The translations under genes and the position numbers were made by a program. A model generated the notes under the pieces. That model was given only the letters and a program-made list of their open reading frames with translations, was not told the origin of the DNA and searched no databases. From Minisyncoccota bacterium (GTDB lineage Bacteria > Patescibacteriota > Minisyncoccia > Phycocordibacterales > UBA5272): a stretch of 64,000 bases of DNA. Positions 5,283 through 64,000 of the stretch are shown here, in pieces. The stretch is from contig JAGORG010000001.1 of assembly GCA_018062965.1 (NCBI GenBank), forward strand, positions 7,488 through 71,487, written 5' to 3'. The first letter of the stretch is position 1. Each line of letters starts with the position of its first letter.

Positions 5283-5325
5283 GGGCTCCACAAGCCCGCG
5301 TGCTAACCATTACACTATAGGCACC
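5250..5325 (-). tRNA. tRNA-His (anticodon GTG) with encoded G-1 and CCA; discriminator read as A73
   Basis: Manual cloverleaf: G(-1)+GTGCCTA/TAGGCAC acceptor, D GTGT/GCAC, anticodon stem CGGGC/GCCCT loop TTGTGGA, T-arm TCGAG TTCGAAT CTCGA, ACCA. Confidence 0.8.
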
Positions 5326-14639: not shown

Positions 14640-14651
14640 AAAAATTAATAC

Positions 14652-27248: not shown

Positions 27249-27324
27249 GATTCGAACTCACGGTCCGGTTGCCCAGACTCTTGTTTTCAAGACAAGTGCA
27301 ATAGACCAACTCTGCCACTCCTCC
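27237..27324 (-). tRNA. tRNA-Ser (anticodon TGA), class II
   Basis: GGAGGAG/CTCCTCC acceptor, D GCAG AGTTGGTCTATT GCAC?, anticodon stem CTTGT/ACAAG loop CTTGAAA, long variable arm, T-arm GTGAG TTCGAAT CTCAC, discriminator G. Confidence 0.8.
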
Positions 27325-36688: not shown

Positions 36689-39013
36689 TTAGTGATGGTT
36701 ATTGTTGTTGTCACCCTTGTACGCAACGTAGAGGCTGCGTCCGAGGATGCCAATGATGAAGAGGATAGCAATGAGTGCAAGCCATTCGATAAGTGTGTTT
36801 GGAAGGAATCCGATACCGTCCCCACTTTTACCGATAACTTTTTTACCTCCTTCTGATTTTGAATCAGTCTGTTCTGTGATAGTTCCGACAACGTATGATG
36901 TTACTTCGTCTTGAACTGTTTCATTTCCCGATGTACCTGGAACAGTGTAGATAACGTATGCTGTGGTCACAACTGATGTACCAACGAGAGCTCCGTTATT
37001 TACTTGTACGTTCCATGTGAGTGAACCTTCAGCATATGGATCAAGCCCCACTCCACTGACAGTTAGTGTTCGTGCATTTGCATCAAACATTCCTGCGGTT
37101 GAGTTTACAAAACTCATATCAGATGGAACGCTCACCTTAAATGTAAGTGGTGCGATTCGTGTGTCTGAAAGGTTTTTGTACACGAGGCGGTATGTTGCTT
37201 CACTGTTTGGTGAAAGTGATCCACTTACTTTTTCTACATGAAGTGAGATGAGTTTCTGTCCTTCATTGATAAGCGCTGCCGTACCTCGTGAACCAATAGT
37301 TACAACTGATCCGTCACTACAAACGATTTCGTTTTTAACAGTAGTTTTTGTTGATGTTTTACCTGGAACCTTAACTGGAGTAACAGGCTTTACATACGTA
37401 ACCTTTGATGACTTTGTTGTGAACTTTACGATTTCACCCTTTACTGTACCGTACTGATTATTCATAACCGCACGACAGTAGTATGATGTGTTTTCTTTAA
37501 GGTTCGTAAGCATGTTTGAGAACGGTGCTGTCGCTTTGTTTCCGATAGAAGCAGATGCTGTCTGTCGTCCAAGGTTTGATGTCTCACCGTATTCGAACCA
37601 TGCAGTTGACTGAGCACCTGAGGCGATAAGACCTATACCGTTACAACGAGCACTGTTCTTTGTGATTTCTGTTACTGGAGATGTAACCACGTTGTTGAAC
37701 TTGATGTTTTGACTTTGTGGGTATACCGTAACCGAATCTGTTGCCTGGTTTCCTACACTGTTGTAACACGTGATGGTAAACGTTGTTGGCTGTGTGATGT
37801 TGTATCGTAGTTCGTTTCCAGAAAGGTTCTTGTAACCACTCCATCCGTTTGACGCAGAACAGTTTGTCGCGTTCTGACTTGTCCATGTGAGTGTTGTGTT
37901 TCCTCCGTAGACGAGTGTTGTTGGGTTAGCGTTGATATCTACCCATGGAATACTTGCAACTACTGGGCAGCTTTGGTATTCAGGGATAACAGAACCGTTT
38001 GGACATGTTCGGTAACATGTAGAACTTTCAGGAACTGTTGTTCCGTTTGGACACACCTTATAACATGTTTGTGCTACGGGAACTGTTGTTCCGTTAGAAC
38101 ATGTCTTGTATTGAAGTGGACACACCTGTGTTACAGGAATAACACTTCCATCCCAACATGTCTGATTCTGCACTGGAGTAACCGGAGCAGGACAGTATGT
38201 GTTTGCGGTAACTGTTGTTCCATTGCTACATACTTTTGTACATGATGGGTAGTCGTGATTGTAACGACTAACATATGGGTCGTTTAGTGAATATGTACAT
38301 GTACTTGGAGTAGGAGCCTGACATGTTCCATTCGCTAGACGAGTATAGCCAGCTGGACATGGAGCAGGTGTAGCAGGACACGCAGCAAATGAACAGTTAG
38401 GGCCAGTTCGTCCGACAGTTGATCCATCTGGACAGATTTGAGCATCCTGAGGACACGCTCCTGGTGTCACGACAGTAGGACAGCTCTGTGTTTCTGGAAC
38501 AACAGAACCGTTTGGACATGTTCGGTAACATGTAGAGTTCACAGGTACTACTTGTCCGTTTGCACAGACTTTGTTTGTTTGAGCAACTGTCCCTCCCCCT
38601 GTTGAATATGTGCCGTATGAACTAGATGTGTAGTATGTTGGTGCGCTATAGTATGTTGAACCTGTATACCCTGTCCAACTTGGAGATGAGTATGTGTTGT
38701 AGTCTACATAACTTCCTGATGAATATCCTGAAGTTGTGTAGGCAGGATAATATACATCATTTGAAACTGGAGGATAATATACATCTGAGCTGTTAGTTAC
38801 CGTTGGTCTGTAGTATTCGTCATCACACCACGTACATGCTGTATTAACAACATCATAACCACCATCATATGTTGGTATGTAGTCGTTCCATTCTTCTTCA
38901 GTTGCCCATTCATACTCTTCTGCCTCTTCTGCTATGACTTGAGTTGGAACAAAAGATGTAAGCACAGCAAACATAACGAGAAGTGCGGATATTTTTTGTA
39001 AAATGTTTTTCAT
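36689..39013 (-). CDS. large Cys-rich cell-surface protein: signal peptide, tandem Cys-containing repeats (CxNGTTVPxxxxC), C-terminal TM anchor
   Basis: MKNILQKISALLVMFAVLTSF signal; repeats around residues 150-350; C-terminal LALIAILFIIGILG. Confidence 0.6.
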   Translation of the reverse strand: MKNILQKISALLVMFAVLTSFVPTQVIAEEAEEYEWATEEEWNDYIPTYDGGYDVVNTACTWCDDEYYRPTVTNSSDVYYPPVSNDVYYPAYTTSGYSSGSYVDYNTYSSPSWTGYTGSTYYSAPTYYTSSSYGTYSTGGGTVAQTNKVCANGQVVPVNSTCYRTCPNGSVVPETQSCPTVVTPGACPQDAQICPDGSTVGRTGPNCSFAACPATPAPCPAGYTRLANGTCQAPTPSTCTYSLNDPYVSRYNHDYPSCTKVCSNGTTVTANTYCPAPVTPVQNQTCWDGSVIPVTQVCPLQYKTCSNGTTVPVAQTCYKVCPNGTTVPESSTCYRTCPNGSVIPEYQSCPVVASIPWVDINANPTTLVYGGNTTLTWTSQNATNCSASNGWSGYKNLSGNELRYNITQPTTFTITCYNSVGNQATDSVTVYPQSQNIKFNNVVTSPVTEITKNSARCNGIGLIASGAQSTAWFEYGETSNLGRQTASASIGNKATAPFSNMLTNLKENTSYYCRAVMNNQYGTVKGEIVKFTTKSSKVTYVKPVTPVKVPGKTSTKTTVKNEIVCSDGSVVTIGSRGTAALINEGQKLISLHVEKVSGSLSPNSEATYRLVYKNLSDTRIAPLTFKVSVPSDMSFVNSTAGMFDANARTLTVSGVGLDPYAEGSLTWNVQVNNGALVGTSVVTTAYVIYTVPGTSGNETVQDEVTSYVVGTITEQTDSKSEGGKKVIGKSGDGIGFLPNTLIEWLALIAILFIIGILGRSLYVAYKGDNNNNHH
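37950..38600. repeat. intragenic DNA-level tandem repeats (ggaactgttgttccgttNgNacat... units) encoding the Cys repeats
   Basis: repeated near-identical 40-60 nt segments read directly. Confidence 0.5.
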
Positions 39014-41114: not shown

Positions 41115-42809
41115 ATGATTACCTTTGATGAAGTACTGCAAAATAAAAAACTAAGTGAACTCCGTAGAGATGAGGAGGAGGATTTGGTAAAAATACTTTC
41201 TGATAAATATGGACTTCCGTATGTAGATTTGCGGGGTATCGCTCCAGAGCCTGATGCAATGCGATTTTTTAAAGAAGAAGACGCCAGAAAAGCTGGGGTT
41301 GCTGCGTTTAAGGTGGTTGGCCGCAAACTCTACATAGCAACGAACGCTCCGCATAAAGCAGAGGTGGAAGCTCTTGTTCGTCCACTTGAAACACGTGGGA
41401 CTGAACTGGTTATGTTTTTGTGTTCGCAAGCATCCCTTGAACATGTCTTTGCACGTTATGCAGATATTCACGAGGGATCAAAAGTTGCCGAAGGAACTCT
41501 TGATCTAACACTGGGTAAAATGGAGTCACTAGCTGCTACATTTGAACACGTGAGTGACATGCAGAAACTATTTGATGAGCTTCTTGGTTCAAATGTACTC
41601 TACAAAACAACACGACTCATTGAACTCATCATTGCAGGCGCGCTTAAGTTTGATGCATCTGACATTCATATTGAACCAGAAGAAACGACGGTGCGTATAC
41701 GCTATCGCTTAAACGGTGTACTTGAAGATGTTGCATATATCGACGGTGTAGCACTCAAACAAATCACAAGTCGTTTGAAATTGGTTTCTGGGTTGAAACT
41801 TTCAACTGTTGCAAATGCGCAAGACGGAAGATTTAGTATCGACCTTGGGGAGGTGGAGGTGGAGGTGCGTGTGTCTGTGATTCCTGGAAACTACGGAGAA
41901 AGCTTTGTGATGCGTCTTCTTGACCCACGCCACGCTCAGTCTGATATCAATAACATCGCCATGGGAGTAAAGGTACGCGAAGCGGTAGACCGAGCGCTCG
42001 CTCGACCAAATGGGGTTATTTTGACAACTGGACCAACGGGTTCTGGAAAGACAACAACACTGTATGCGTTTTTACGCCACACATATTCCCCTGGTACAAA
42101 AATCATCACTATTGAGGATCCTATCGAATACCATTTGGATGGCATCACACAGACCCAGGTAGACGAAGAAAAAGACTACACCTTTTTGTCTGGACTACGA
42201 GCATCCCTCCGTCAGGACCCAGATGTAATCATGGTGGGAGAAATACGAGACGAAGACACTGCAAAGGTTGCGATCAACGCAGCACTCACCGGGCACTTGG
42301 TGTTTTCTACATTGCACACCAATACAGCAGCTGGAACTATTCCTCGTCTTATTGATTTGAAAGTTAACCCGAAAGTTATCGCTTCAGCGCTTTCTCTTGC
42401 ACTTGCTCAACGTCTCGTACGAACACTGTGTGAGCATTGCAAACAAGAATACGTAACCAACGAAAAAGAATCTAGAGTCATAACGAACACTCTTGGTGCC
42501 ATGAAAGTAGCTGGTATGGAGGAATCAATGATGGGATATGTACCACTTCCTGAATACAGGATATATAAAGCAGTTGGGTGCGACAAATGTAGTTCTGGGT
42601 ACACAGGGCGCACTGGTATCTTTGAAGCAATTGTTATGTCAGACAGTATTGAGCTTGCTCTTGCAGGGAATCCGAGTGAGCGCGATATACGCGAAGCAGC
42701 TAAAGGATCCAAAATCCCCTCACTTCTCCAAGATGCTATACTGAAGACACTTCAAGGCATAACTTCGCTTGAAGAAATAGGAAAAACGGTTGATCTTTAC
42801 GGTGAATAA
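41115..42809 (+). CDS. pilB: type IV pilus / type II secretion assembly ATPase (GspE/PilB family)
   Basis: Walker A GPTGSGKTTTLYAFL; MVGEIRDEDTAKVAINAALTGHLVFSTLHTN; C-terminal tetra-Cys. Confidence 0.85.
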   Translation: MITFDEVLQNKKLSELRRDEEEDLVKILSDKYGLPYVDLRGIAPEPDAMRFFKEEDARKAGVAAFKVVGRKLYIATNAPHKAEVEALVRPLETRGTELVMFLCSQASLEHVFARYADIHEGSKVAEGTLDLTLGKMESLAATFEHVSDMQKLFDELLGSNVLYKTTRLIELIIAGALKFDASDIHIEPEETTVRIRYRLNGVLEDVAYIDGVALKQITSRLKLVSGLKLSTVANAQDGRFSIDLGEVEVEVRVSVIPGNYGESFVMRLLDPRHAQSDINNIAMGVKVREAVDRALARPNGVILTTGPTGSGKTTTLYAFLRHTYSPGTKIITIEDPIEYHLDGITQTQVDEEKDYTFLSGLRASLRQDPDVIMVGEIRDEDTAKVAINAALTGHLVFSTLHTNTAAGTIPRLIDLKVNPKVIASALSLALAQRLVRTLCEHCKQEYVTNEKESRVITNTLGAMKVAGMEESMMGYVPLPEYRIYKAVGCDKCSSGYTGRTGIFEAIVMSDSIELALAGNPSERDIREAAKGSKIPSLLQDAILKTLQGITSLEEIGKTVDLYGE

Positions 42810-52269: not shown

Positions 52270-53004
52270 ATGTTCCATACTATTTTTTACGAACCAATAT
52301 ACAATCTTCTTGTTATTGCTCTTACATACGCTCCGCTGCACGATGTTGGTATATCAATCATTTTTGTTACATGTGTAGTTAAGTTTATCCTCTTACCCCT
52401 TAACTTATCTGCAACACGAAGTCAGTACGCTCTTAAGCGAGTCGAAAAAGAAATGGCGGATATAAAAGACTCGTACAAAAAAAATCCCCAAGAAGCTTCA
52501 AAAAAGATGATGGAAATATATAAGCGTGAAAACATAAATCCGTTTTCTAGTATCTTTGCTGTGCTTATTCAAATTCCTATTTTTCTAGCACTTTATTTTG
52601 TGTTTTCAAAAGGATTGGTCAGTGACCCAAATTCTCTCTACTCATTCCTTAGCTTCCCAGAAGTTTTACACAACGAAGCTTTCGGTGTGCTTGATGTTAC
52701 AAAAAGAAGTATCGTCATTGCTCTTCTAACTGGGATAAGTGCTTATGTATTAGCTCGTCGCCAAACATCAACTATGGTGAGCACAAAGCAACCCCATGAA
52801 GAAACATTCCAAGATCATTTCATGAAGTCTATGAGAGTGCAGTTACTATATGTTTTACCTGTTATTATTGGTGTTTCTGCCTTTGTTTTACCTGCTGCGC
52901 TTGGATTGTATTGGACAACAAGTAATCTCCTTGGAATACTTCAAGATGTGTATATTAAGCGTAAGTTCTTTAACGAAACCAAAGTTAATCCTCTAGTGAA
53001 ATAA
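52270..53004 (+). CDS. yidC: membrane protein insertase YidC (short form)
   Basis: 5-TM 244-aa protein after rnpA. Confidence 0.75.
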   Translation: MFHTIFYEPIYNLLVIALTYAPLHDVGISIIFVTCVVKFILLPLNLSATRSQYALKRVEKEMADIKDSYKKNPQEASKKMMEIYKRENINPFSSIFAVLIQIPIFLALYFVFSKGLVSDPNSLYSFLSFPEVLHNEAFGVLDVTKRSIVIALLTGISAYVLARRQTSTMVSTKQPHEETFQDHFMKSMRVQLLYVLPVIIGVSAFVLPAALGLYWTTSNLLGILQDVYIKRKFFNETKVNPLVK

Positions 53005-54286
53005 GGCGAGGAATATTTACTAACCAAAGCGCCCCGTCTTTTTTGTTGGTAAATGCAAGTAATGTATCGTTGGTATCAAGAAGAAGATTCTCCATATCAA
53101 TAGGTTGACCCAGTTCCTGCCCTATGTTGAATGTAAACGTAGAAGCCCCTTCCGCCACACTTACTATCGTTAAGGAATCACTAAATGAAGTCCTTCCCTG
53201 GTACCAATCATCAGGAAGACCTTCAACGGGTGTTGATAGTTTTTCAGGAACACCACAAACAGTAAACAACGCAGATGTTTCCCATACACACTTATCAGCA
53301 AGTGTTCGTATACTAAGAACTTTTGTTTCCCCTGTTCTCACATCAAAATAAAATGTTGCCAAACCAGAGCGTGACCACATACTGGCAAGGTAGAGTGTAT
53401 TTTTTGTTGATGGACTTATCATGAGTCCTGTTTTTTGTGCCAGTGTTCGAGCGGATGTTTGTGCATCTAATACAACACCTTCTACATATGCAGATGGTTT
53501 TGAAACAAGAAGTGGTGTTTTTCCTGCATAGCTGATATTCCATTCAGATAAAGGGATATCAGTGCGAGTTATTTTTTTATCCAAAGAGATGGTGTACAAA
53601 GAAGAACCTGTTGTGTTTGGCACAATATATGAAATAAGTGTCCCATCAGGTGACATATCAACAGATGATATGTTGTTCGGCAGTGAAGAGTTGCCTTCGA
53701 CTGGAAGAGGGTCTCTACCAGGAGCAACACGAGGAATGTCTATAAGAGTTGATATAGTATCACCTGTTGAAGTGTCGTACGAACGAACAAGAGCTCTTCT
53801 TCCGTCGCGGTATATGTAAGCATCAAACACACCTGGCATTAAGGTGTTTGTTATTTGGTCAATATTTTGTGTCAGTGTGTCATATCCATAAACGTATCCA
53901 GTCGTCCTGTCTATAAACATCAAACTTGTTGATGTTGCACGTTCTTGGCGGGTTATGGGTGTACCAGAAGCGGTTGTCGAAGTTGCCCCTAGTAGGTATT
54001 GATAGTCAACAAATTGATACCCAGCAACAGGATTGGGCCATATTTTTAACATAGGGAAGTTATCTTCAATAGAAATCTGTTGGGTCGTCGTCGATCCATC
54101 CTGGTAAGGTGAATCGGTAACAAATTGAGATATAAAACGCGAAGCGGCTACACCAAATGGATTAGATGATGGGTTTGAGGTAAGAGTCCCAGGAGAAGAT
54201 GTGTCTCTACCAAAGAAGATATAGAGTGTTACACCTGCTGTTATAACAAGCACCACAGCAAAAAGGATATAGATGTTTCTTCGCAT
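52985..54286 (-). CDS. secreted hypothetical protein (N-terminal TM/signal), beta-rich
   Basis: MRRNIYILFAVVLVITAGV. Confidence 0.45.
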   Translation of the reverse strand: MRRNIYILFAVVLVITAGVTLYIFFGRDTSSPGTLTSNPSSNPFGVAASRFISQFVTDSPYQDGSTTTQQISIEDNFPMLKIWPNPVAGYQFVDYQYLLGATSTTASGTPITRQERATSTSLMFIDRTTGYVYGYDTLTQNIDQITNTLMPGVFDAYIYRDGRRALVRSYDTSTGDTISTLIDIPRVAPGRDPLPVEGNSSLPNNISSVDMSPDGTLISYIVPNTTGSSLYTISLDKKITRTDIPLSEWNISYAGKTPLLVSKPSAYVEGVVLDAQTSARTLAQKTGLMISPSTKNTLYLASMWSRSGLATFYFDVRTGETKVLSIRTLADKCVWETSALFTVCGVPEKLSTPVEGLPDDWYQGRTSFSDSLTIVSVAEGASTFTFNIGQELGQPIDMENLLLDTNDTLLAFTNKKDGALWLVNIPRLISLED

Positions 54287-54335
54287 AGTCTTGTTGTTAG
54301 TATAGCAAAATTACTGGTTCCTCTGATGTATACAG

Positions 54336-55205
54336 CTATTTATTAACATGCCAATGTGCCCCTGTTGTTTTTGCGTAAGCTCCTTGCCCTTCGTTACAAA
54401 ATCTCCACCCCTGGAAAACATATACAACACCACCAGCACATCTACCACTTGTTGGACTTGTTGGTTGACGTTTAATGTAGGCGTCCAAAGTAGAGTTGCC
54501 TATTTGAACATCAACAGCGGAGACTCCTGGACCGTGTGTGCTATGTGCCCACCACTCTGTCCCTCCAGAAATAACAACTTTACAATTACATGCTGCTTGT
54601 AACTGGATAAGCATTGATATAACATCCGCAGGTAAAAGTCCAACATTTGTACATCTCTCTTGTCCAACACGCGTACACCATGAACTATTATTGTTCGTTT
54701 CAACTTTACCAGATAGTAATCCGCGCACACGTTGTTCGTCAGCAAGAATTTCTTGAAGTTTACTGTTTGGGCAGTTCCTATCTACACACGCCCCTGCTGG
54801 TAATGTTGTTGGGGTTGATGATGATGTGGTACCGCCAGGTGCGGTGCTTGTCCCGGTTGTTGTGGTCTGCACAGGGATATCTATTGGTTTGAAACTAATT
54901 TCTCCTCGAAGTAAGTCTGGGTTTACTTGGTATAAAATTAGCCACAGCGCGAGTACGCCAATAACTCCATATGTTGCACGTACAATGTCTTCTTTTATTT
55001 CTCGAGCTTTATTCCCAGAATCAGCTGCGGTGAGACGTAAACCACCGATAGCAACTATCGCCGCTCCTGCGAGTAAACAAGCAACAATACCAAGTAACCA
55101 CATATATGAAAAAACTTCCCCTATCGAAGCAGTTATCGCTCCAAAAGAAGTACTTATCCCAGAAAAAACAGGAAGATCTTGCTGGAGAAGGTTGTAGGTT
55201 GCCAT
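54336..55205 (-). CDS. membrane-anchored protein with Thr/Ser-rich linker and C-terminal M15-type (VanY/DD-peptidase-like) zinc peptidase domain
   Basis: STHGPGVSAVD fits SxHxxGxAxD; later AHWH. Confidence 0.5.
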   Translation of the reverse strand: MATYNLLQQDLPVFSGISTSFGAITASIGEVFSYMWLLGIVACLLAGAAIVAIGGLRLTAADSGNKAREIKEDIVRATYGVIGVLALWLILYQVNPDLLRGEISFKPIDIPVQTTTTGTSTAPGGTTSSSTPTTLPAGACVDRNCPNSKLQEILADEQRVRGLLSGKVETNNNSSWCTRVGQERCTNVGLLPADVISMLIQLQAACNCKVVISGGTEWWAHSTHGPGVSAVDVQIGNSTLDAYIKRQPTSPTSGRCAGGVVYVFQGWRFCNEGQGAYAKTTGAHWHVNK

Positions 55206-55225
55206 AACGTTAAGAAAAGTATACT

Positions 55226-56194
55226 CTATTTTCTGCTATCAAAGACAATTTCAACTCTAGCTTCAGTTTTTTGTAGTTTTCTCTTCAGTTGATCTATAGA
55301 AACAACAAGTGTTTGTGCACCATAACTGTCATCTTTTGGGCGAAGTGTTGTTGTATAAAGTGAACTCTGTGTGATAGGTAACCCATTAAGTGTCCATGAA
55401 AACCGTTCACTCCCACGCGGTGTTCCTTTTGTTGATAGGTAATATGGTGCAAGATAGAGCGTGACTTCTTTTGTTGTTTCAAAACGACGAATAAAACCAT
55501 ACGAGGTGTTTGGGCCAAGGATTGTGTCGTGTGTATAAAATAAAGGCATAACAGCATGTGGTCGAATCGTTACACTGTTCTCACTTTGTGAACCGGATTC
55601 GCTCCGCACTATTACTTTGACGATGTGTTCGTTTCGTAAGTAATCAAGACTTGTTGTAAAAGTAGATTTTCCCCTACCAGATGCAGATTGAACAAATTCA
55701 CCATGTACATACCATGCGTATGATAAATTTGTTGCTGGAATACGTTTATTGTTTTCAAAAAACTCAGGGAATGCAGTCACTGTAATAGCTGCCCCCTCCC
55801 CAGGAAGAGCTTTTCCTTTGTAAAAAGGAGGAGTATAGCTTTCAGGTGACTCCCATAGAAGCGTAACAGATTGAGGTGAAAAAACTCTTGATAACCCAAT
55901 CTCTTCTCCAGAACCGTCTCGTGCTGTGAGCTCAACAGTTGTTTTTGTCCCTGGTCCACCAAGAGTTACGTTAAGAGTCTTTTCGCCAACACTGGAACGA
56001 ACAGTTACACCATTTACTTTCCAAGTTAGGAGTGCATTATCGACATCAAAAGAATAACTTTGAACGGTAACTTTGAGGGTTTCGTACGGGTTAATGTTAT
56101 TCGTTGGTATGATCAAATCAGCAGATAGTTGAGCCTGGGCGATGCCAAGGGATATACCAAGGGAACATAGTGCTAAGGTAAAAAAGCGAATCAT
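55226..56194 (-). CDS. secreted hypothetical protein
   Basis: signal MIRFFTLALCSLGISLGIAQA. Confidence 0.45.
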   Translation of the reverse strand: MIRFFTLALCSLGISLGIAQAQLSADLIIPTNNINPYETLKVTVQSYSFDVDNALLTWKVNGVTVRSSVGEKTLNVTLGGPGTKTTVELTARDGSGEEIGLSRVFSPQSVTLLWESPESYTPPFYKGKALPGEGAAITVTAFPEFFENNKRIPATNLSYAWYVHGEFVQSASGRGKSTFTTSLDYLRNEHIVKVIVRSESGSQSENSVTIRPHAVMPLFYTHDTILGPNTSYGFIRRFETTKEVTLYLAPYYLSTKGTPRGSERFSWTLNGLPITQSSLYTTTLRPKDDSYGAQTLVVSIDQLKRKLQKTEARVEIVFDSRK

Positions 56195-58005
56195 GATGAA
56201 GATTGTTCTAATTCCTTCTTCATTTCTTTTATTTGTAAAAGCTGTGATGGGTCAGATGTAATAATCTGATCCTCAGTGTACGAAGCAACTACCTTGATGG
56301 CTACGTGTTTAAGCCCCGCAAAGAATATCCCCTCACCTACACCAGACTCAAGAAGAAGAAACTTTTCTTCGTCTGTAAGATTGAATGTTTTTTGAACAAG
56401 ATCAATTGAAGAAGGAGATTGCTTTAGGAGCAACTGAATTGATGAGTTGGTGATAATAGGTAGTCCGTATGGAGACTTGAGAAAGTCCCCTACGTCTTGC
56501 GTAATCGTTGCAAGTCCTAGGTAATATTTTCGTCCGCGTTTTGCAAGTCCAAACAAAAATGATGCGGTGTCGTCGTTTTTCATCATAATCCACGCTTCGT
56601 CCACAACAAGAAGACGTTTTCGTATATCTTTACGAACAGCGTTCCAGATGTAGTGTGTGATGATATACATCGCAACAGGTTTTAGTTCATCTTCCATGTC
56701 GCGGATAGAGAAACACACAAGCTTTTTATTGATATCTACGTTTGATGGTTGATTAATAAAACCAGACCATGTTCCTTTTGTGTATTTTGCAAGACGGGCA
56801 AGTAGATCCCCTGACCCACCAATACCAGTCAGTACCATTTCAAAGTCAGAAAGAAGTGGTGGTTCAAGTTTTGTAAAATCAACATCTCCTGAAATGTCTT
56901 TGAGTGCGTATGTTTCAGTGATGGCCTGGTCGATAATAGCGTCTTCCTCAGGGGTGAGTCCTCCAAGCATCACACGGAAAAGTCCAACCAGGTTTACAAT
57001 GTTTGAACGAAGAACTTCAGAAGGAGATTCATCCTCTGTTGGTGCAGGTAAATCAAATGGGTTAATATGATGCTCGCTTGTGAGAGAAATATCAAAGTAT
57101 CGCCCCCCAACAGATTCTGCTAGATATTCGTATTCACGTTCTGGGTCGATAATAATAACCTCAGTATCAAACATAAGTGTACGCAAGATTTCTAGCTTTG
57201 TTGTATAGCTTTTACCAGAACCTGATTTTGCAAAGATGATTGAGTTGTAGTTTTCTAGTGAGAAACGATCAAAAAGGATGAGCGACCCATTGTGACGGTT
57301 AAGTCCATACAAAATACCTCTATCAGAAGAGAGGTCAAAAGAAACGAATGGGAAAAATGATGAAAGTGGAGAGGTGTTGAGTTTGTTTTTGATGAGCAGT
57401 CTGTCGTCTTGCAAAGGAATTACCGACAAAAAAGCATCTTCTTGTTGGAAAAGTGCTGGTTTTATATACACAAGACGGCTATCAAGTATGGTTTTTATTT
57501 CATTTTCAACCTTATCAAGTTCTTTTTCGTCGGATCCATAAATAGAAATATAGAGAGACACATCAAACATTTTTTCTTGGGCCTGGATAAGTCCATCACG
57601 CAAGTCTTCAAGGTCTTTGTAAGCAACATCAAGAGATGGGTCACGCACAAGACCTTTTTCTTCTCTTGCCATGATCTGACTTTCAACCTCAGCAACTTTT
57701 CTTTGAAAATCTTTCATCACCTTCCCTGTTTCAAGTGGTGAAATATGAATAGAAACATCAAACACCTTATCGAGGTTAATGATCGGGCTTAGCCAGTTAT
57801 CGGTAAGAAATCGTGGATATGAAATAACAAAAAACGAACGAACAATATTTGTTCCAAGGTTAAGAGCTTTCGGTGTTACCCCAAGCGCGCTTGGTGCAAT
57901 GATGTCTTTTAACTGCATTTCAGCAGCTTTGTACACCTGGTCCGGGAGAATAGGACGCACAGCAGCTTCTCCGTTATTTTTTTTGATGAAGTCAAATAGT
58001 CCCAT
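56191..58005 (-). CDS. VirB4/TrbE-like type IV secretion ATPase
   Basis: Walker A IIFAKSGSGKSYTTK, Walker B LLVVDEAWIMM. Confidence 0.75.
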   Translation of the reverse strand: MGLFDFIKKNNGEAAVRPILPDQVYKAAEMQLKDIIAPSALGVTPKALNLGTNIVRSFFVISYPRFLTDNWLSPIINLDKVFDVSIHISPLETGKVMKDFQRKVAEVESQIMAREEKGLVRDPSLDVAYKDLEDLRDGLIQAQEKMFDVSLYISIYGSDEKELDKVENEIKTILDSRLVYIKPALFQQEDAFLSVIPLQDDRLLIKNKLNTSPLSSFFPFVSFDLSSDRGILYGLNRHNGSLILFDRFSLENYNSIIFAKSGSGKSYTTKLEILRTLMFDTEVIIIDPEREYEYLAESVGGRYFDISLTSEHHINPFDLPAPTEDESPSEVLRSNIVNLVGLFRVMLGGLTPEEDAIIDQAITETYALKDISGDVDFTKLEPPLLSDFEMVLTGIGGSGDLLARLAKYTKGTWSGFINQPSNVDINKKLVCFSIRDMEDELKPVAMYIITHYIWNAVRKDIRKRLLVVDEAWIMMKNDDTASFLFGLAKRGRKYYLGLATITQDVGDFLKSPYGLPIITNSSIQLLLKQSPSSIDLVQKTFNLTDEEKFLLLESGVGEGIFFAGLKHVAIKVVASYTEDQIITSDPSQLLQIKEMKKELEQSSS

Positions 58006-58007
58006 GG

Positions 58008-58649
58008 TTATAATTGTGAAGCCTGCTCCTCAGATAGTGGCACACCACGATCTTGTTCGCCTGGATTAAATAGTTTATAGAAAAGCTCAACAACCTCTTC
58101 TGTCCCAAGTTTTTGAGCACGCAACCCGAAACGCATCAGTCCTTGTGTTACGCTTGCAACACGTTGTTCCAGTTGTGTGCGAGCTGTCTCAAAACCAACA
58201 GTATCTTCTTGTTTGTTGTTATTAAATGAAAGCAACCCACCTGTTCCCCCAGCTGCTGCTCCTGGTGGAAGGTACGGTATCACAATAAAGAAATGCTTTG
58301 TCATAATATTGGTCTCGTCAGTGAACTTTTTGATGAACCCCATGTATTCTTTGATTTGAATCTTAAGCAAATCTTCTTCTACTTCGCCGCTTCTGGATTC
58401 CAACAGGTTCATGTATGGCTTTATGTTCAACCTGCGAGATTGAATAAAAAGTTGCACAGGAAATTCAAGCCCATTTAGAAGTGACTGAAATTGCATAATA
58501 ATAGCTTGCTGCTCATCACTGCTTTTTAGTGAAAGGTTAAGAGATGATGTAATCAAAACAGCGCGCAGTTCGCCATTTTTGAGCGTAACAATCCCATCAC
58601 GAATATGCTCTATAGGAACAAATTGCTGTGTTGCAGACGTGGATGCCAT
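58008..58649 (-). CDS. hypothetical protein (213 aa) in T4SS-like cluster
   Basis: ORF. Confidence 0.4.
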   Translation of the reverse strand: MASTSATQQFVPIEHIRDGIVTLKNGELRAVLITSSLNLSLKSSDEQQAIIMQFQSLLNGLEFPVQLFIQSRRLNIKPYMNLLESRSGEVEEDLLKIQIKEYMGFIKKFTDETNIMTKHFFIVIPYLPPGAAAGGTGGLLSFNNNKQEDTVGFETARTQLEQRVASVTQGLMRFGLRAQKLGTEEVVELFYKLFNPGEQDRGVPLSEEQASQL

Positions 58650-58689
58650 AGATAGTATCCAGTATAGCGCATATTATCTGTGTATCGTG

Positions 58690-59115
58690 TTATTCCTGTG
58701 GGTTACGGTCAAGCACATCAAGTCCAAGAGCTATGTCGTGCAGTTTTCCAGAGTTAGCTTTTTCAAGCATGGCCTGTTTTTGAGATGTTGCGATGATGTC
58801 ATCAACATGAGTCTGCTCCTTGTTGTCATTTTTTGTAGGTTGCTTCCATGTGTAAACCTTGTTTCCTGTGTAGTATTTGAAAGCACTCTCAAGTACATCA
58901 ATGAATGGCCGCTCGTTTACTTTCCAAAAAGCAAGAGCAATAAAAAGCCCTGCAACTGGTATGATAAGCATCATCGCAATTAGTTTTGAGCCAATCAGTG
59001 TCCAAATAAGAAACGAAAACCCCCCTGCTCCAACTAGGTAAGCAAACTGCTTAAGCGTAAAAGGACCAAAAATCTTGTCCTCCATGTCAATAAATTGTGG
59101 AACGCGGAATTGCAT
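58690..59115 (-). CDS. small 3-TM membrane protein, VirB3/PrgI-like
   Basis: EDKIFGPFTLKQFAYLVGAGG then two TM helices; immediately upstream of VirB4-like gene. Confidence 0.5.
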   Translation of the reverse strand: MQFRVPQFIDMEDKIFGPFTLKQFAYLVGAGGFSFLIWTLIGSKLIAMMLIIPVAGLFIALAFWKVNERPFIDVLESAFKYYTGNKVYTWKQPTKNDNKEQTHVDDIIATSQKQAMLEKANSGKLHDIALGLDVLDRNPQE

Positions 59116-59147
59116 ATAGAATAAGTATATCAGAATCCAAGTGATTA

Positions 59148-59873
59148 CTAAGCAATTTCCCTGTATGGGTCAATATTGTATTTTGTAGGAGCTTTGCTGT
59201 ATGTAGCTGCTTGAGGCGCTGGTTCAACAGGTACTTCTCCGCCGTGGGTAAGGTTCTGCTCAGCGCTTGGCGTAACAGAGGGCGTTTCTTCTTTTGGTTC
59301 CATGGACCGCAACTGTTCTTGAATATGCGCAAGGCGTGCTTGTATTTCGTCATCGTCTGGTATGTTTCCTAAAACATCGAGTTGCTCCATGAGTTGCGAG
59401 CGAGAGCCGAGTGTGATTACTTTTGCGGGACGAGGAGTGTTGGGTGTTACTGGGGATACATCGATTGCTGATTCTCGTTTTGTTGTGTCCAAGATTTCTT
59501 TACGCAACTCCTCAGGATGGGGATCATTTCCTAGGGTGATTGTTTTTATTTCTCCAACTGCTTCACCAAGTATTTTGATACGTGCTTTTTGAAAGATGCT
59601 TTTATCTAAATCTTCTGCGAGCTTTGTCGCTTGTTCATGTGATATGCCAAGGGATGTTTCTAAAACATCAACAGCGTGAGATGGATCAATAGCCCCAAGA
59701 AGAATAAGGGTAATGGTATTTTTAAGTGGAAGATACTTTGGTATGGGGAGATTGTAGAGTTTCCCCAGTGTTGCCGCAGATTTGTTCACTTCATCTCCTG
59801 CGAGAATTTCTTGTACAGCAGGAGATGTTTTTGCTATCAGTTCTTGAATTGTGTTTTGGTTTATATCACTCAT
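59148..59873 (-). CDS. hypothetical protein (241 aa)
   Basis: ORF. Confidence 0.4.
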   Translation of the reverse strand: MSDINQNTIQELIAKTSPAVQEILAGDEVNKSAATLGKLYNLPIPKYLPLKNTITLILLGAIDPSHAVDVLETSLGISHEQATKLAEDLDKSIFQKARIKILGEAVGEIKTITLGNDPHPEELRKEILDTTKRESAIDVSPVTPNTPRPAKVITLGSRSQLMEQLDVLGNIPDDDEIQARLAHIQEQLRSMEPKEETPSVTPSAEQNLTHGGEVPVEPAPQAATYSKAPTKYNIDPYREIA

Positions 59874-59882
59874 AGAGATAGT

Positions 59883-62849
59883 TTATGCACGCTTACCACC
59901 TTGCATAGCCATTTTAACAAAGTCGTGTATATCTTGAGGGGTGTTTACTTGTTGAGAGTATGAAGCAACACGTGCATCCGCTTGATCGTTACTTTCTATG
60001 TTAAGGGTTACTTTTGGTCTGATGTTTGCATCAAGATCAAAATCAATCGTATGCTTATCTCGCTCCTCTTGTTGGGTATAAGCGGTCTCTCGAGCGGCTT
60101 CAACGGCTTCATTTATGAAGTTTTGTGTTTGTACTCGAGCGTTTGCCTGAGTATTTGTTTCTAGTTTAAAAGGTAAATCGGCTTCCTGAGTTAAATCAAC
60201 GTCCATCTTACCTTTTTGTAGATCAAGGTTACTCTTCAGGTCTTTTCCTGTTGTTGCGACGTTATATGCTGAACGCAGATCAGAGCGTAGCTTCTTAAGT
60301 GTTTCGACATTCTGTTGCTTCTTTGATGCTATATTTCGGCGAGCTTGATCATAAACCTTCTTTTCTTCATCAGTGGTTCTAGCCATCAGTTCTAGTTCCC
60401 CTTCTAGTTTTTCAATTTCTTTCTTCTGATCTTCAGCAACTTCTTTGAATGGGTCTTTATTGATAAGCTCAAGAGCCATGTCAGAGTTGTCTAACTTCAT
60501 AAGGGAAGCAACCTTCTTTTGAAGTGTATCCTGAGTGAGGTTCCCGCTCTGGTCTCGTGTGACTGGTGTTGCTGTGTATTGATCTGCAACTTTATACTTT
60601 TCCTTAAGAACATAATCATCCCCCGCCTCTTCAATGAGTTTTGTTCGAGCCTTTTGATCTGCTTCAGCATAGTTAGCGACTTTTGCATTGCGGGTGTCTT
60701 GTCGTTCACGTTCGCGAGAGCCGAGCTGTTCAGCAATGAGGTCTCCATCAGTTTTTAAACCATATTTATTTTTTACAGAATCACGCACATTTGCATATCT
60801 GTTTGCATACTCAGATACGGTTGGGTTTGTTGATGCACGTAGTCTATCTTCAACACCACCAAGCACTCCTCGTTTTACTTTGTCGATGTATTTTGCGCGT
60901 GTTGCATCATCTTGTATACCGTCTGCACGAGCTTTTGTTTTTTCAGCTCTATCTTTAAATGCTTGATCGTATGTTTTCAAACCTTTACCCATGTTAGTAA
61001 AGCCAATTTTACCAGCGTTGTTTTGAACAAGGGCTGTATTACGAGCATCAAATGAGCTGTTTTGAAGAGAAAGGAGGCTGTCTTTTACACGGTTTCCGAC
61101 CCAGGTGTTCTGCATTCTGTCCACAGCACCACTACGAGCCAATCGCGCAGCTCCAGCACCAAGCGTTGATCGAGCGAGTAATCCAGCTCCACCCATAGCA
61201 ACCCCTCCTGCAAAACCACCAACCATACCAACACCTTTTGTTGCAAACTCACCAACTGCCCCAGAAACTTCTTTTGTCACTTTGAGCATGATATGTAGCA
61301 TGATAAGCATCATGAGTACGTTTGCTATCTGAGACACCCCACTTAGGTTTGCTACGCTACCAACAGCGTTTCTGCTTATGGCACCACCCTGCCCAAAAAT
61401 AAGTGTCATTTGAATAGACAAATAGAGCATAACCATAAACACAACAGACACAGCGAGCTGACTAAAGAATATACCACGCAGCTGTTGTGCTCGTTCACCA
61501 AGTTTTGGAATCATGACATCCACTAAAAGAAGTGGTGAAAAAATAATAATAAACGAGAGTGCAAGTGTGCGCATCATGAGTATTCCGGAAGCCATCAAAA
61601 AGATATATGCAGCATAGAGAACATATCCTACAACCAAAAGCGCAGCGGGCCAGGTGGTGATAGAGCTAAGTATGCTGATAGGTCTACCCTCAGCATCTTT
61701 TTTGTCAGTATTTGTATTTGTTGCAGAAATAACCAAATCCTGGAGACCAAGCTGTCCCATAATAATAGCGCCTGCGCTATTATTAATATTTTGACCAGAT
61801 AACACATTTGTTACTGTATCGTTCACTGCACTTGCATAGATATTGAGCGAAATAATATTTGAAACATCAATCGCTGCTCGTGTGAGTGGATATGAAAAGT
61901 TCACAAAGAGTGCAAATACAACTACCCATGGCAAGTACTTTTTAAAGGTATCTTGTTTGTTGATGATATACATGAAACCAAGATATAGTCCCGAGAACAC
62001 AACAAACATAGAAATTATCTGCCGTATGAGTTGCCATAGTGGGTAAAACGCAGGCGGAGCCCATGTACTGAACTCAAGAATACCGTAGACGACAATATAG
62101 TTGAGAAGGTTTGTAGATAGCCACAACAAAAACCCCGCAAACTGGAGAAGGGTGTTTTTGATAATGTATGTTACAAAAACATCAACACAACTAACAAGGC
62201 TAAATTGCCAAATCTGACACTTATCAGGGTTAGCGATTCGTTGAGCAGCTTCTGTTCCTGCGGTTGTTATTGGAGTTGCACTAGTAAGACGAGAGAGGTC
62301 ATTTGCTCCAACGTTGTTACCTTCTCGTTCCATTGTTTCTGCAGCTCGTACAAGACTATTTGGACCTGTAAGTTTTAGCAAAAAAGCATTTGTAACACCG
62401 GTCATATCAGCAGGTGCTCCAGAGTTTACGTTTGCATTACGAAAAGAAACATCTGCTGCTGTGATTGCACGCACTTGTGCTTGAGTCGGACTAACCCCTG
62501 TCGCGCGGAGATCGTTAAAGGTTTTTGTGTATAGAGCTTTTGCCGTAGTAACTGCCTGTTGAGCTTTTACAACAGACGCAAGTTCACCTTCAAACTTTTC
62601 TGTTCCTGATGTTGCACGCTGTTTGTACGCATTTTCGATACCTGTAAGACTAGCTGTTGTCGCATCAAAAACTGTAATAGCTGATTGGAAAAGTGTTGTT
62701 ATGGTTGCCTCCTGTTTATCTATGATTCTATCTATTCCTTGTGCAAAGGCAACTTGTTGAGGTGCGAGAAACAAGAAGATGGATAGAAAGATACTACTAC
62801 ATACAGCAAGCTTTCGAAGGCTATTCATAGTGCTCAGTGTATCATGCAC
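59883..62849 (-). CDS. 988-aa polytopic membrane protein, VirB6/TrbL-like channel component with long charged coiled-coil C-terminal tail
   Basis: signal + about 8 TM helices in residues 200-560; KR/DE-rich tail. Confidence 0.5.
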   Translation of the reverse strand: MHDTLSTMNSLRKLAVCSSIFLSIFLFLAPQQVAFAQGIDRIIDKQEATITTLFQSAITVFDATTASLTGIENAYKQRATSGTEKFEGELASVVKAQQAVTTAKALYTKTFNDLRATGVSPTQAQVRAITAADVSFRNANVNSGAPADMTGVTNAFLLKLTGPNSLVRAAETMEREGNNVGANDLSRLTSATPITTAGTEAAQRIANPDKCQIWQFSLVSCVDVFVTYIIKNTLLQFAGFLLWLSTNLLNYIVVYGILEFSTWAPPAFYPLWQLIRQIISMFVVFSGLYLGFMYIINKQDTFKKYLPWVVVFALFVNFSYPLTRAAIDVSNIISLNIYASAVNDTVTNVLSGQNINNSAGAIIMGQLGLQDLVISATNTNTDKKDAEGRPISILSSITTWPAALLVVGYVLYAAYIFLMASGILMMRTLALSFIIIFSPLLLVDVMIPKLGERAQQLRGIFFSQLAVSVVFMVMLYLSIQMTLIFGQGGAISRNAVGSVANLSGVSQIANVLMMLIMLHIMLKVTKEVSGAVGEFATKGVGMVGGFAGGVAMGGAGLLARSTLGAGAARLARSGAVDRMQNTWVGNRVKDSLLSLQNSSFDARNTALVQNNAGKIGFTNMGKGLKTYDQAFKDRAEKTKARADGIQDDATRAKYIDKVKRGVLGGVEDRLRASTNPTVSEYANRYANVRDSVKNKYGLKTDGDLIAEQLGSRERERQDTRNAKVANYAEADQKARTKLIEEAGDDYVLKEKYKVADQYTATPVTRDQSGNLTQDTLQKKVASLMKLDNSDMALELINKDPFKEVAEDQKKEIEKLEGELELMARTTDEEKKVYDQARRNIASKKQQNVETLKKLRSDLRSAYNVATTGKDLKSNLDLQKGKMDVDLTQEADLPFKLETNTQANARVQTQNFINEAVEAARETAYTQQEERDKHTIDFDLDANIRPKVTLNIESNDQADARVASYSQQVNTPQDIHDFVKMAMQGGKRA

Positions 62850-62906
62850 AAACCCTCTTTCTTGTGAGAAAGAGGGTTTGATTGTTGGTATGATTTCTTT
62901 TGCTTT

Positions 62907-63971
62907 TTAAGCACCAGCTCCTCCAAAGTCTTGGGTTTCTAACTGTCCGCGTATCGCTGCGCAGTCTGCTTTGTAGATAAATATTGTACCCCCTTCAGAA
63001 AGGCTTTGCTGTACATTTCCTTTAAATGAAACATATTCGCCGTCACGTATTGCAGCGGAGGTTTGGTTAGGTAAAGCTTCCGCATCTATTCTGTTCTGAT
63101 AATCTCTAAATAGGTTCAAAATAACCTCGCTTGAGTTAGATGTTTGGATCGCGTTGAGTGTCGTTGTGACAAGGGCTGTTGTTGTCGCAATAAGATTTAA
63201 CTCTTGTCCTATAGTTGTACGCAAGCGGTCATTTGTTGTACTTTCGTTTGAGTGGAAGCTAAAAGCAGCTGTAACACGAGCATCGGTTTCTATTTGTGGA
63301 TGATCTTTAACAAGTTTTTCGTAACATGCTTTCATCACGTTAAGTTGATTTTGGTAAAGAGTTATTTCGTTTAGATAGCTTTGGTCGGTGATCTGTAAAC
63401 TAGCAAGTGATTTTTGGTGAAAACTTAGCTGTTGTGCAGGAGGTCCGACAATGGTTTGTTTTCCAGAAGTGTTATTAGCTAAGTCGTTTACCGGCGGACG
63501 GCTCGTGACTACTGTTCCGGTGCCCCCTCTACTTCCACCTGTGATATTTCCAGCTGCTGTGCTGATACTTTGAAGTAGATTAATACTAGTGAATGCTGTA
63601 CTGATAAGTGACCCAGCCCCTGGGCCAAGTGTTGAACGAAGGGTTTCTGCTGGAGACTTGAGAGCATCTTCTAGGAGTGTATTAAACATACGCCCTGTTT
63701 GTTGTACTTCTTCAACAAGACACGGTGGACTAGCTGTTTCTGCATATAGGTTACCGTTAATATCATTTTCAGCGTACTTAACACACGTTGTTAAGCTTTT
63801 TATACCGGCACCTAGGTCAAAATCTTTTACCACTTGTTCTCGCACAGCACTAGCTCCTTCGTTTACAGCGAGCTGGACGTTCATATTTCGTGTATATTCA
63901 TTATCCCCTCCTGTGATAGCGAGCCACGCATCCATGCCACCTGCATTTGGTCGAGCTTTTTGAAGCTCCAT
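62907..63971 (-). CDS. secreted/pilin-like hypothetical protein (N-terminus may lie beyond window end)
   Basis: ORF reaches within 30 nt of window edge. Confidence 0.35.
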   Translation of the reverse strand: MELQKARPNAGGMDAWLAITGGDNEYTRNMNVQLAVNEGASAVREQVVKDFDLGAGIKSLTTCVKYAENDINGNLYAETASPPCLVEEVQQTGRMFNTLLEDALKSPAETLRSTLGPGAGSLISTAFTSINLLQSISTAAGNITGGSRGGTGTVVTSRPPVNDLANNTSGKQTIVGPPAQQLSFHQKSLASLQITDQSYLNEITLYQNQLNVMKACYEKLVKDHPQIETDARVTAAFSFHSNESTTNDRLRTTIGQELNLIATTTALVTTTLNAIQTSNSSEVILNLFRDYQNRIDAEALPNQTSAAIRDGEYVSFKGNVQQSLSEGGTIFIYKADCAAIRGQLETQDFGGAGA

Positions 63972-64000
63972 GAGGGCTTGTGCGGTCTCTACACCCTCAT

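Follow-up and report, generated by a model that had tools for sequence, protein, structure and literature searches.

A chromosomal type IV secretion gene cluster beside the replication origin of a Paceibacteria genome

The gene cluster and its surroundings

In this work, we describe a gene cluster for a type IV secretion system (T4SS), found at positions 52985-64000, minus strand, of a 64,000 nucleotide (nt) stretch of contig JAGORG010000001.1, from a Minisyncoccota bacterium; the whole of this stretch is called the window throughout. The cluster is chromosomal, lies beside the replication origin and is of a kind typical of ultrasmall Patescibacteria. Within the window it comprises nine long open reading frames (ORFs), all on the minus strand and spaced by -4 to +57 nt, as a tightly packed operon. 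Contigs of the same species, obtained by looking up the exact VirB4 and PrgI sequences, add the 5' end of the ninth gene and a tenth gene, both outside the window, and bring the total to ten genes. All the ORFs listed in a preliminary description of the locus were found in place on the minus strand, and its gene descriptions proved correct, save for two amendments reported below. The features identified in the window are the following, from the window end inwards.

62907-64000, minus strand: secreted Cys-containing protein of unknown fold, the 3' 363 codons of a gene for 586-591 amino acids (aa); the ORF, listed as 62907-63971, has no start before the window ends
62849-62880, strand unassigned: hairpin with a perfect 14-bp stem, in the 57-nt gap between the 591-aa and VirB6-like genes
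59883-62849, minus strand: VirB6-like polytopic channel protein, 988 aa, from its transmembrane (TM) profile and the family matches of its orthologues
59148-59873, minus strand: acidic non-membrane protein, 241 aa, from its conserved C-terminal motif and its position
58690-59115, minus strand: PrgI/VirB3-like small membrane protein, 141 aa, from PF12666
58008-58649, minus strand: TrsD-like protein, 213 aa, from NCBIfam matches and PF26593 (TraC-like)
56191-58005, minus strand: monoderm (MPF-FATA-like) VirB4-type ATPase, 604 aa, from NCBIfam, Pfam and Walker motifs
55226-56194, minus strand: secreted protein with immunoglobulin (Ig)-like beta-sandwich repeats, 322 aa, from its signal peptide and the Pfam matches of its orthologues
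54336-55205, minus strand: VirB2-like pilin hairpin followed by a Cys-rich domain, 289 aa, from pilin matches of its orthologues and AlphaFold2 (AF2) models
52985-54286, minus strand: membrane-anchored protein, probable TolB-like beta-propeller, 433 aa, from its TM segment and profile matches

The complete cluster starts with a 308-aa anchored protein, followed by the 591-aa secreted protein, the VirB6-like protein, the 241-aa cytoplasmic protein, PrgI/VirB3, TrsD and VirB4; the Ig-like secreted protein, the putative pilin-enzyme fusion and the anchored, probably TolB-like propeller come after VirB4, the last named being the final gene. Upstream of the 308-aa gene, the conspecific contigs carry KsgA and a UvrD-type helicase. 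Downstream of the array lies the convergent yidC-rnpA pair, the former overlapped by 20 nt by the 3' end of the 433-aa gene, and then dnaA, dnaN and a class A penicillin-binding protein. The GC content and composition of the cluster are unremarkable. The hairpin at 62849-62880, which has a 4-nt loop and is not followed by a T-run, may be a processing, stability or attenuation element.

The 80 genomes closest by VirB4 are labelled Nomurabacteria, Paceibacterota, Parcubacteria, Taylor-, Kaiser-, Wolfe- or Adlerbacteria, or generically as Candidate Phyla Radiation (CPR), and, to judge from these relatives, the source belongs to the Paceibacteria/Parcubacteria lineage of the CPR. Both this lineage and the T4SS families recognised agree with the CPR-typical, T4SS-like system that had been proposed.

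VirB4, TrsD and PrgI

The 604-aa protein matches the NCBIfam model conju_CD1110 (E=9e-110; 368 bits, the cut-off being 325) and Pfam P-loop_TraG (E=7e-25), and contains the Walker A and Walker B motifs AKSGSGKS and LLVVDE, as anticipated for a VirB4-type ATPase. In NCBIfam, the 213-aa protein encoded before it matched TrsD/TraD and VirB4 models, the latter over their N-terminal 100-230 residues, and it is assigned PF26593 (TraC-like) in the precomputed Pfam annotation; the two proteins jointly span a full VirB4. A frameshifted VirB4 pseudogene was ruled out as the origin of this split, given the TrsD match and the separate ORFs in 78 of the 80 species compared; being so widely shared among related species, the split is ancestral.

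The 141-aa protein matches PF12666 (PrgI) with E=6.6e-12, above the Pfam gathering cut-off, and its hydrophobicity profile features two adjacent hydrophobic helices. The two amendments concern this gene and its place: VirB4 had been described as preceded by a small protein with three TM segments. A small membrane protein does exist, but the gene directly upstream of VirB4 encodes the soluble TrsD-like protein, while PrgI lies one gene further and has two helices, not three. Matches to T4SS profiles are not confined to VirB4: they extend to PrgI, to TrsD or the VirB4 N-domain and, through orthologues of other cluster proteins, to T4SS_pilin, TrbL/VirB6, CD3337/EF1877 and Mbov_0396.

Conservation and inheritance

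At least 490 relatives of VirB4 were found in species-representative genomes; comparisons were made on the best 80 loci, selected by VirB4 similarity, many of which are incomplete, so that the family counts given here are lower bounds. Across these 80 species VirB4 is 72-91% identical to that of the window. Profile searches found all ten families recurring with order and strand unchanged, each in 52-80 of the 80 loci: VirB4 in 80, TrsD in 78, PrgI in 77, the 322-aa family in 74-75, the 241-aa family in 69, the pilin family in 67, the VirB6-like family in 65, the 433-aa family in 60-61, the 308-aa family in 53 and the 591-aa family in 52. KsgA, yidC, dnaA and dnaN flank the cluster in 46-57 of the loci. 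Such recurrence of the array in related species is far beyond chance.

Since the ten-gene order and the ksgA and yidC/rnpA/dnaA/dnaN flanks are shared by about 80 Paceibacteria species, comparison of the loci identifies the cluster as a vertically inherited core chromosomal system, not a mobile element or an integrative and conjugative element (ICE). Median identities in these genomes are 74% for VirB4, 54% for DnaA, 50% for KsgA, 38% for YidC and 32% for DnaN, a contrast that is somewhat inflated in favour of VirB4, because the loci were picked by VirB4 similarity. By these figures VirB4 is more conserved than DnaA, which appears to be an addition to the literature. The envelope partner proteins are only 25-30% identical to those of the window (loci L007-L086).

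A putative pilin-enzyme fusion

The 289-aa protein is made up of a VirB2-type two-helix membrane hairpin (aa ~28-99), modelled by AF2 as two long antiparallel helices, a Thr/Ser/Pro/Gly-rich linker and a Cys-rich extracytoplasmic domain of 150 aa (aa ~140-289). Family T4SS_pilin (PF18895) was found in 11 out of 21 orthologues, with a best E of 2.4e-10, and TrbC/VirB2 in 2; the window protein itself matches T4SS_pilin with E=0.003, under the cut-off. The AF2 model has a predicted local distance difference test (pLDDT) score of 81 for the full protein and of 89.5 for the domain alone, where the predicted template modelling score (pTM) is 0.85. The top PDB matches of the full-length model are to histidine kinases (E>0.1); this likeness was rejected as a topology artefact of a helical hairpin joined to an alpha/beta domain.

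In an alignment of 59 sequences of the Cys-rich domain, the GGTE motif and residues E217, H221, H224, D232 and H284 are invariant, and the cysteines are conserved. The sequence motif, H224-x7-D232 ... H-W-[H/D], reads HGPGVSAVD...HWH in the window, and the zinc-ligand pattern H-x(3-7)-D plus a distal His is present and conserved across the family. Weak fold matches were found in PDB to MepA (E=0.66), Sonic hedgehog, LdcB and VanX (E 0.7-8.5), and in BFVD to an M15A peptidase (E=0.03, probability 0.72), with M15, M15B, DD-carboxypeptidase and MepK entries among the top 50; LAS enzymes thus predominate in these weak matches.

The family comprises 2548 clusters at 50% identity, its larger members consisting of pilin, domain and SLT, and in the 80 loci the domain never occurs without the pilin hairpin. 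In relatives, the hairpin is also fused to an SLT lytic transglycosylase (E=3e-10) or to a YkuD L,D-transpeptidase (E=1e-9). Examples of the fusions to SLT, to YkuD or to the domain plus SLT are found at L017:14976-16040 and L062:12863-14278 and in proteins P0083, P0084, P0104, P0116 and P0125. Close relatives feature, 3' of the 433-aa gene, an eleventh gene encoding a pilin-SLT fusion; no second pilin or pilin-SLT gene was found in the 64-kb window.

The motif, the weak fold matches and the domain context agree, the context, to which the Hedgehog/DD-peptidase-domain and lysozyme-like proteins next to VirB4 in Southlakia epibionticum also belong, being the stronger part, and on these grounds the Cys-rich domain is predicted to be a divergent LAS-type zinc peptidase acting on peptidoglycan, an assignment that we consider probable, though the domain is not a demonstrable M15 member. 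Several results weigh against it. Foldseek searches with the domain model gave no significant match, individual template modelling scores being 0.25-0.40; no M15 profile was found at E<=0.01 in the 21 orthologues and 10 larger family members scanned with Pfam; and hhalign runs against the single E. coli MepK sequence and against its family profile aligned only the HxGxxxD segment, with a probability of 2.5% for the family, the MepK homologue set being narrow (>=76% identity) and its profile consequently of low sensitivity. The domain matched no Pfam family in any of the 31 members scanned, and its profile had no match among PDB sequences. A qualification follows from these searches: of the membrane-anchored M15-type peptidase proposed for this gene, the peptidase character is favoured by motif, fold and context, while membership of M15 is not borne out by any profile. 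As judged from domain architectures, the pilin hairpin carries interchangeable cell-wall enzyme domains (the putative LAS-like one, SLT and YkuD), an arrangement that appears additional to what has been published.

The VirB6-like protein and its variable ectodomain

The VirB6-like protein, 988 aa long from GTG at 62849 and 981 aa from ATG at 62828, where gene callers start it, carries a signal peptide and some 170 aa of extracytoplasmic domain ahead of the TM core; its TM profile shows about seven hydrophobic segments between aa 205 and 526, and 36% of the residues in its 368-aa tail are charged. It had been rightly described as polytopic with a long charged tail. In 53 positional orthologues, TrbL/VirB6 (PF04610) was detected in 10, with a best E of 1e-6, CD3337/EF1877 in 7 and Mbov_0396, of a Mycoplasma ICE, in 2; by transitive homology through these orthologues, the protein is taken as VirB6-like.

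Ten conspecific contigs encode a PrgI 100% identical to that of the window, and in contigs L001-L006 the same is true for VirB4, TrsD and the 322-aa protein, DnaA being 99.6-100% identical. The VirB6-like ectodomain (aa ~40-205, window 62222-62727) behaves differently: a single allele is common to all ten conspecific contigs, only 26% identical to that of the window and unalignable with it as DNA (compare L001-L003 and L088-L097), whereas identity reaches 87% in the TM core and about 91% in the tail. The 591-aa, 433-aa and 289-aa proteins also vary among conspecific contigs, with identities of 83-95%. Neither ectodomain allele has detectable similarity in other species.

Because the two forms cannot be aligned at the DNA level, the comparison points to allelic replacement or diversifying selection of the exposed parts, and the occurrence of unrelated-looking alleles of this surface domain within one species appears to be a further addition to the literature. 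Exact-sequence look-up found the window's own VirB6-like protein, in either its 988-aa or 981-aa form, in no other record; the window allele may for this reason be an assembly chimera. A diversity-generating retroelement was tried as the source of the variation and ruled out, as no template-like repeat occurs in 52-64 kb and the alleles, rather than differing at adenines only, are unalignable. The variable ectodomain is a candidate determinant of host specificity or of phage or immune evasion.

Other partner proteins

The 322-aa protein has a signal peptide, and 20 out of 60 orthologues match BiPBP_C, with further matches to Ig_3 and PKD; a weak match to phage T4 Hoc was also found (E=9e-4). 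For the 433-aa protein, which has a TM segment at aa 3-28, the profile matched 12 TolB chains at E~0.002, and orthologues contain PD40 repeats in 4 and PG_binding_1 in 2 out of 57 cases, making it a probable anchored TolB-like propeller.

The full gene of the 591-aa family, with a signal peptide, is found in contigs L001 and L088-L097, where it encodes 586-591 aa; the protein is 83-94% identical among conspecific contigs. No Pfam relatives were found for the 308-, 241- and 591-aa families, and PDB profile searches gave nothing usable for them. The 241-aa protein, which also lacks NCBIfam matches, is acidic and cytoplasmic, ends in a strongly conserved extreme C-terminal motif, ...APTxYN(I/V)DPYRE, and is encoded between the VirB6-like and PrgI genes; conceivable roles are those of a dedicated adaptor, a chaperone or a substrate.

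Nature and possible function of the system

Taken together, we read the cluster, with a probability of about three in four, as a chromosomal, vertically inherited Paceibacteria T4SS, whose VirB4 belongs to the Patescibacteria clade derived from monoderm (MPF-FATA) conjugation machinery. No relaxase (MOB) and no coupling protein of the VirD4/TcpA type were detected in the cluster, in about 30 further ORFs of the window that were scanned with Pfam, or in the 5 kb past the window end, where the preliminary description had suggested looking for them; the upstream flank contains only UvrD and KsgA. Neither outcome named in that description as telling against its reading was found in this DNA: T4SS matches do not stop at VirB4, and no complete conjugative module with relaxase was detected. 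Of the scanned ORFs, about 10 have no Pfam match, 3 are serine recombinases and the rest belong to housekeeping or otherwise non-conjugation families. Window ORFs with a Walker A motif encode RuvB, a PilB-type ATPase, DnaA, a superfamily 1 (SF1) helicase and VirB4, along with two that have no Pfam match, a 433-aa ORF at 2252-3553 and a 774-aa ORF at 36689-39013.

As no relaxase or coupling protein accompanies the cluster, its role is most likely not conjugation, and more probably a contact-dependent exchange with a host, by protein export or host-molecule import. Such a role fits the essentiality of the homologous system for epibiotic growth of a Saccharibacterium.

A number of points tell against these readings. 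Many Patescibacteria encode VirD4 homologues far from virB4 (PMC12102498), and a coupling protein may be encoded elsewhere in this genome. No cluster protein matched a VirB8-like bitopic protein of NTF2 fold, the 308-aa protein having no Pfam or PDB sequence match; VirB8-like proteins are rare in the published Patescibacteria survey (PMC12102498). The 988-aa protein of the window has no Pfam or NCBIfam family match of its own. Finally, the function is inferred, no substrate being identifiable in the sequence.

A mechanism may be proposed on this basis. A VirB4 hexamer, receiving its N-domain in trans from TrsD, would dock, within the single membrane, onto PrgI and the VirB6-like protein. Using ATP, VirB4 would have VirB2-like subunits assembled into a conduit or pilus, extracting the pilin hairpin and building a short conduit; the analogy behind the extraction step is the VirB4-driven dislocation of pilin in Agrobacterium. 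A two-helix hairpin would leave both termini outside the cell, and the conserved cysteines of the domain fit an extracytoplasmic site. There, the tethered enzyme domain would locally cut peptide cross-links of peptidoglycan, letting the apparatus cross the wall. The hairpin of relatives tethers a lytic transglycosylase or an L,D-transpeptidase likewise, and all these domains would remodel peptidoglycan around or ahead of the apparatus. The Ig-like and propeller proteins would probably form a wall-spanning scaffold, and the variable VirB6 ectodomain and secreted proteins might contact the host cell. Cutting of holes may be too narrow a description, and this too weakens the proposal, because YkuD cross-links rather than lyses.

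An extended form of this proposal, which we regard as doubtful, is that the Paceibacteria VirB2-like pilin, instead of being a passive subunit of a filament, is a carrier module: VirB4 would extract hairpin-anchored enzyme fusions (LAS-like peptidase, lytic transglycosylase, L,D-transpeptidase) from the membrane and assemble them or push them outward as an enzyme-armed pilus drilling through the wall, its own or the host's, with the hypervariable VirB6 ectodomain and the secreted partners setting host specificity. Were this true, the LAS-like domain would represent an uncatalogued family of about 2500 clusters at 50% identity, found only behind T4SS pilin hairpins.

An uptake machine of the ComB or Ced kind, importing host DNA or nucleotides to offset missing biosynthesis, is an unlikely alternative. 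CPR bacteria do lack nucleotide synthesis, import systems also do without relaxase and coupling protein, VirB4 gave weak partial matches to CedB and CedD, and uptake of host molecules through T4SS and pilus has been the subject of speculation (PMC12857230). The CedB and CedD matches, however, are P-loop segments only, far under the cut-offs, and no ComB- or Ced-specific components were found in the cluster. Moreover, transformation of Southlakia epibionticum needs ComEC and type IV pili, and since loss of comEC is non-lethal whereas loss of the T4SS is lethal, DNA import by the known competence route is not the essential role of the T4SS.

Still less probable is that the system is chiefly a surface organelle or wall remodeller, in which wall enzymes would be tethered to an adhesive pilus or anchor and no substrate would be translocated. 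Such an organelle would suit a cluster in which half of the genes are for envelope proteins, secreted or anchored, in which the pilin is joined to wall-active domains, the synthetic YkuD among them, and in which the surface parts are hypervariable. Yet the cluster has kept its VirB6-like channel protein, PrgI and TrsD, and the conservation of VirB4 is extreme, which argues for an active translocon over a mere assembly platform, and adhesion has type IV pili of its own (PilB-type ATPase, 41115-42809).

The mating-pair-formation module of an ICE, or a plasmid remnant, serving ordinary DNA conjugation, is most improbable: even though the best family of VirB4 is the conjugal-transfer ATPase of Clostridioides ICEs, the TrsD, PrgI and CD3337/Mbov_0396 matches all come from conjugative elements, and three large serine recombinases by tRNA genes and a 1514-aa SF1 helicase share the window, the cluster, the scanned ORFs and the upstream flank are devoid of relaxase and coupling protein, the recombinases lie more than 25 kb off with housekeeping genes in between, about 80 species have the cluster in the one place between ksgA and yidC/dnaA, VirB4 is conserved above DnaA, the composition matches that of the genome, and relaxases were reported in only 103 Patescibacteria genomes in the published survey (PMC12102498).

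Other features of the window

No integrase was found inside the cluster, the serine recombinases being at least 25 kb away. These are three large proteins (Resolvase, Recombinase and Zn ribbon domains), encoded at 3657-5282, 11006-12325 and 25617-27248; the first overlaps tRNA-His (5250-5324) and the last abuts tRNA-Ser (27236-27324). Low-GC stretches occur at 1-4 kb and 10-14 kb of the window. The three recombinase regions are probably integrated mobile elements or prophage remnants, unrelated to the T4SS cluster.

The SF1 helicase gene, at 17646-22190 on the minus strand, encodes 1514 aa with AAA_11/AAA_12 domains and a C-terminal C4 zinc ribbon of the topoisomerase I type; after it come an ASCH-domain protein (16939-17643) and ORFs of unknown function at 13686-16058, a region that may be a defence or mobile-element module. 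Three large ORFs are without Pfam match: the 774-aa one (36689-39013, minus strand), the 433-aa one (2252-3553, plus strand), which lies in a low-GC stretch and adjoins a serine recombinase, and one of 468 aa (14652-16058, minus strand). At 41115-42809, on the plus strand, a PilB/GspE-type ATPase, the motor of type IV pili, is encoded (T2SSE E=5e-111, MshEN domain); a type IV pilus system is therefore encoded separately from the T4SS.

Comparison with known systems

The gram-positive conjugative T4SSs compared (pCF10 Prg/Pcf, pIP501 Tra, pGO1/pSK41 Trs, C. difficile CTn2 and the Mycoplasma ICE) share with the window a VirB4 (PrgJ/TraE/CD1110/Mbov_0397), PrgI, TrsD/TraD as a separate VirB4 N-domain protein, a VirB6 analogue (PrgH/CD3337-type/Mbov_0396) and a membrane-anchored peptidoglycan hydrolase, both putative in the window, and the absence of an outer-membrane core. 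Unlike the window cluster, they possess both relaxase and coupling protein, reside on mobile elements and lack VirB2-type pilins, the pilin-like protein of the Mycoplasma ICE being only a weak match to the window pilin. Their hydrolases combine SLT with CHAP or LytM on a simple TM anchor.

The Cys-rich domain was compared with the LAS/M15 peptidases VanX, VanY/LdcB, MepK, phage M15A endolysins, MepA (M74) and the Hedgehog N-domain. Shared features are a His...Asp pair 6-7 residues apart, on the strand after the 'xTGGTE' strand ('SGYR' in M15), a C-terminal H-x-[H/D] strand, the predicted order of alpha/beta secondary-structure elements, the extracytoplasmic site and the wall context. The domain differs in having no profile match, a fold likeness only at E 0.03-8, extra cysteines, and a constant position behind a pilin hairpin.

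The closest comparisons are with Patescibacteria. Quinonero-Coronel et al. (2025) defined a Patescibacteria-specific VirB4 clade, sister to MPF-FATA (PMC12102498). In the T4SSs surveyed, no partner is as common as TrsD, others being PrgI/VirB3, divergent VirB6 and VirB2-like pilins, relaxases are almost absent, and the genes lie near dnaA, dnaN, rnpA and ksgA, especially in Paceibacteria (PMC12102498). The window cluster shares with them a monoderm-like VirB4, a separate TrsD, PrgI/VirB3, a putative VirB6 homologue, a pilin near virB4, the lack of a relaxase, and the location. By text search, fusions of pilin to LAS-like, SLT or YkuD domains are not described in that survey, nor are the 241-, 308-, 591-, 322- and 433-aa partner families or the intraspecific variation of the VirB6 ectodomain (PMC12102498).

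By transposon sequencing, Wang et al. (2023) showed that genes SEML1_0006-0019 of Southlakia epibionticum are essential for epibiotic growth, and noted that they include no coupling or relaxase proteins (PMC10633639). The description of such systems as poorly characterised is therefore now half true, as they have been surveyed across Patescibacteria (PMC12102498) and found essential in one Saccharibacterium (PMC10633639). Signal exchange or the uptake of host molecules by way of T4SS and pilus is put forward as speculation in a review of 2025 (PMC12857230). Essentiality has been shown for the S. epibionticum system only. The Patescibacteria T4SS is the only one known to be essential for its bearer, and the question of its cargo matters for a group to which a quarter of the diversity of bacteria may belong.

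Common to the window and S. epibionticum are the order PrgI, TrsD-like protein, VirB4, followed by cell-wall hydrolases (in the window, a predicted one), a VirB6/TrbL-like protein of about 1000 aa, VirB2-like pilins, the lack of relaxase and coupling protein and the position near the origin. In S. epibionticum, a protein with a Hedgehog/DD-peptidase domain and a lysozyme-like protein are encoded immediately downstream of VirB4; the DD-peptidase domain ends a protein of more than 1100 aa, and the lysozyme/CHAP-type protein is separate. An NTF2-like (VirB8-like) protein is also present there, while none was recognised in the window cluster. Six free-standing pilins are found in the S. epibionticum array; in the window, a single pilin gene itself bears the putative enzyme domain.

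The system is thus one already described, the Patescibacteria T4SS (PMC12102498, PMC10633639, PMC12857230), of which the window adds no new kind but another member, a clean Paceibacteria example with new architectural detail. Its ten-gene conserved core marks which of the proteins of unknown function are worth study, and the interchangeable wall enzyme domains on the pilin hairpin suggest how the machine may cross peptidoglycan and provide a catalytic motif that can be tested.

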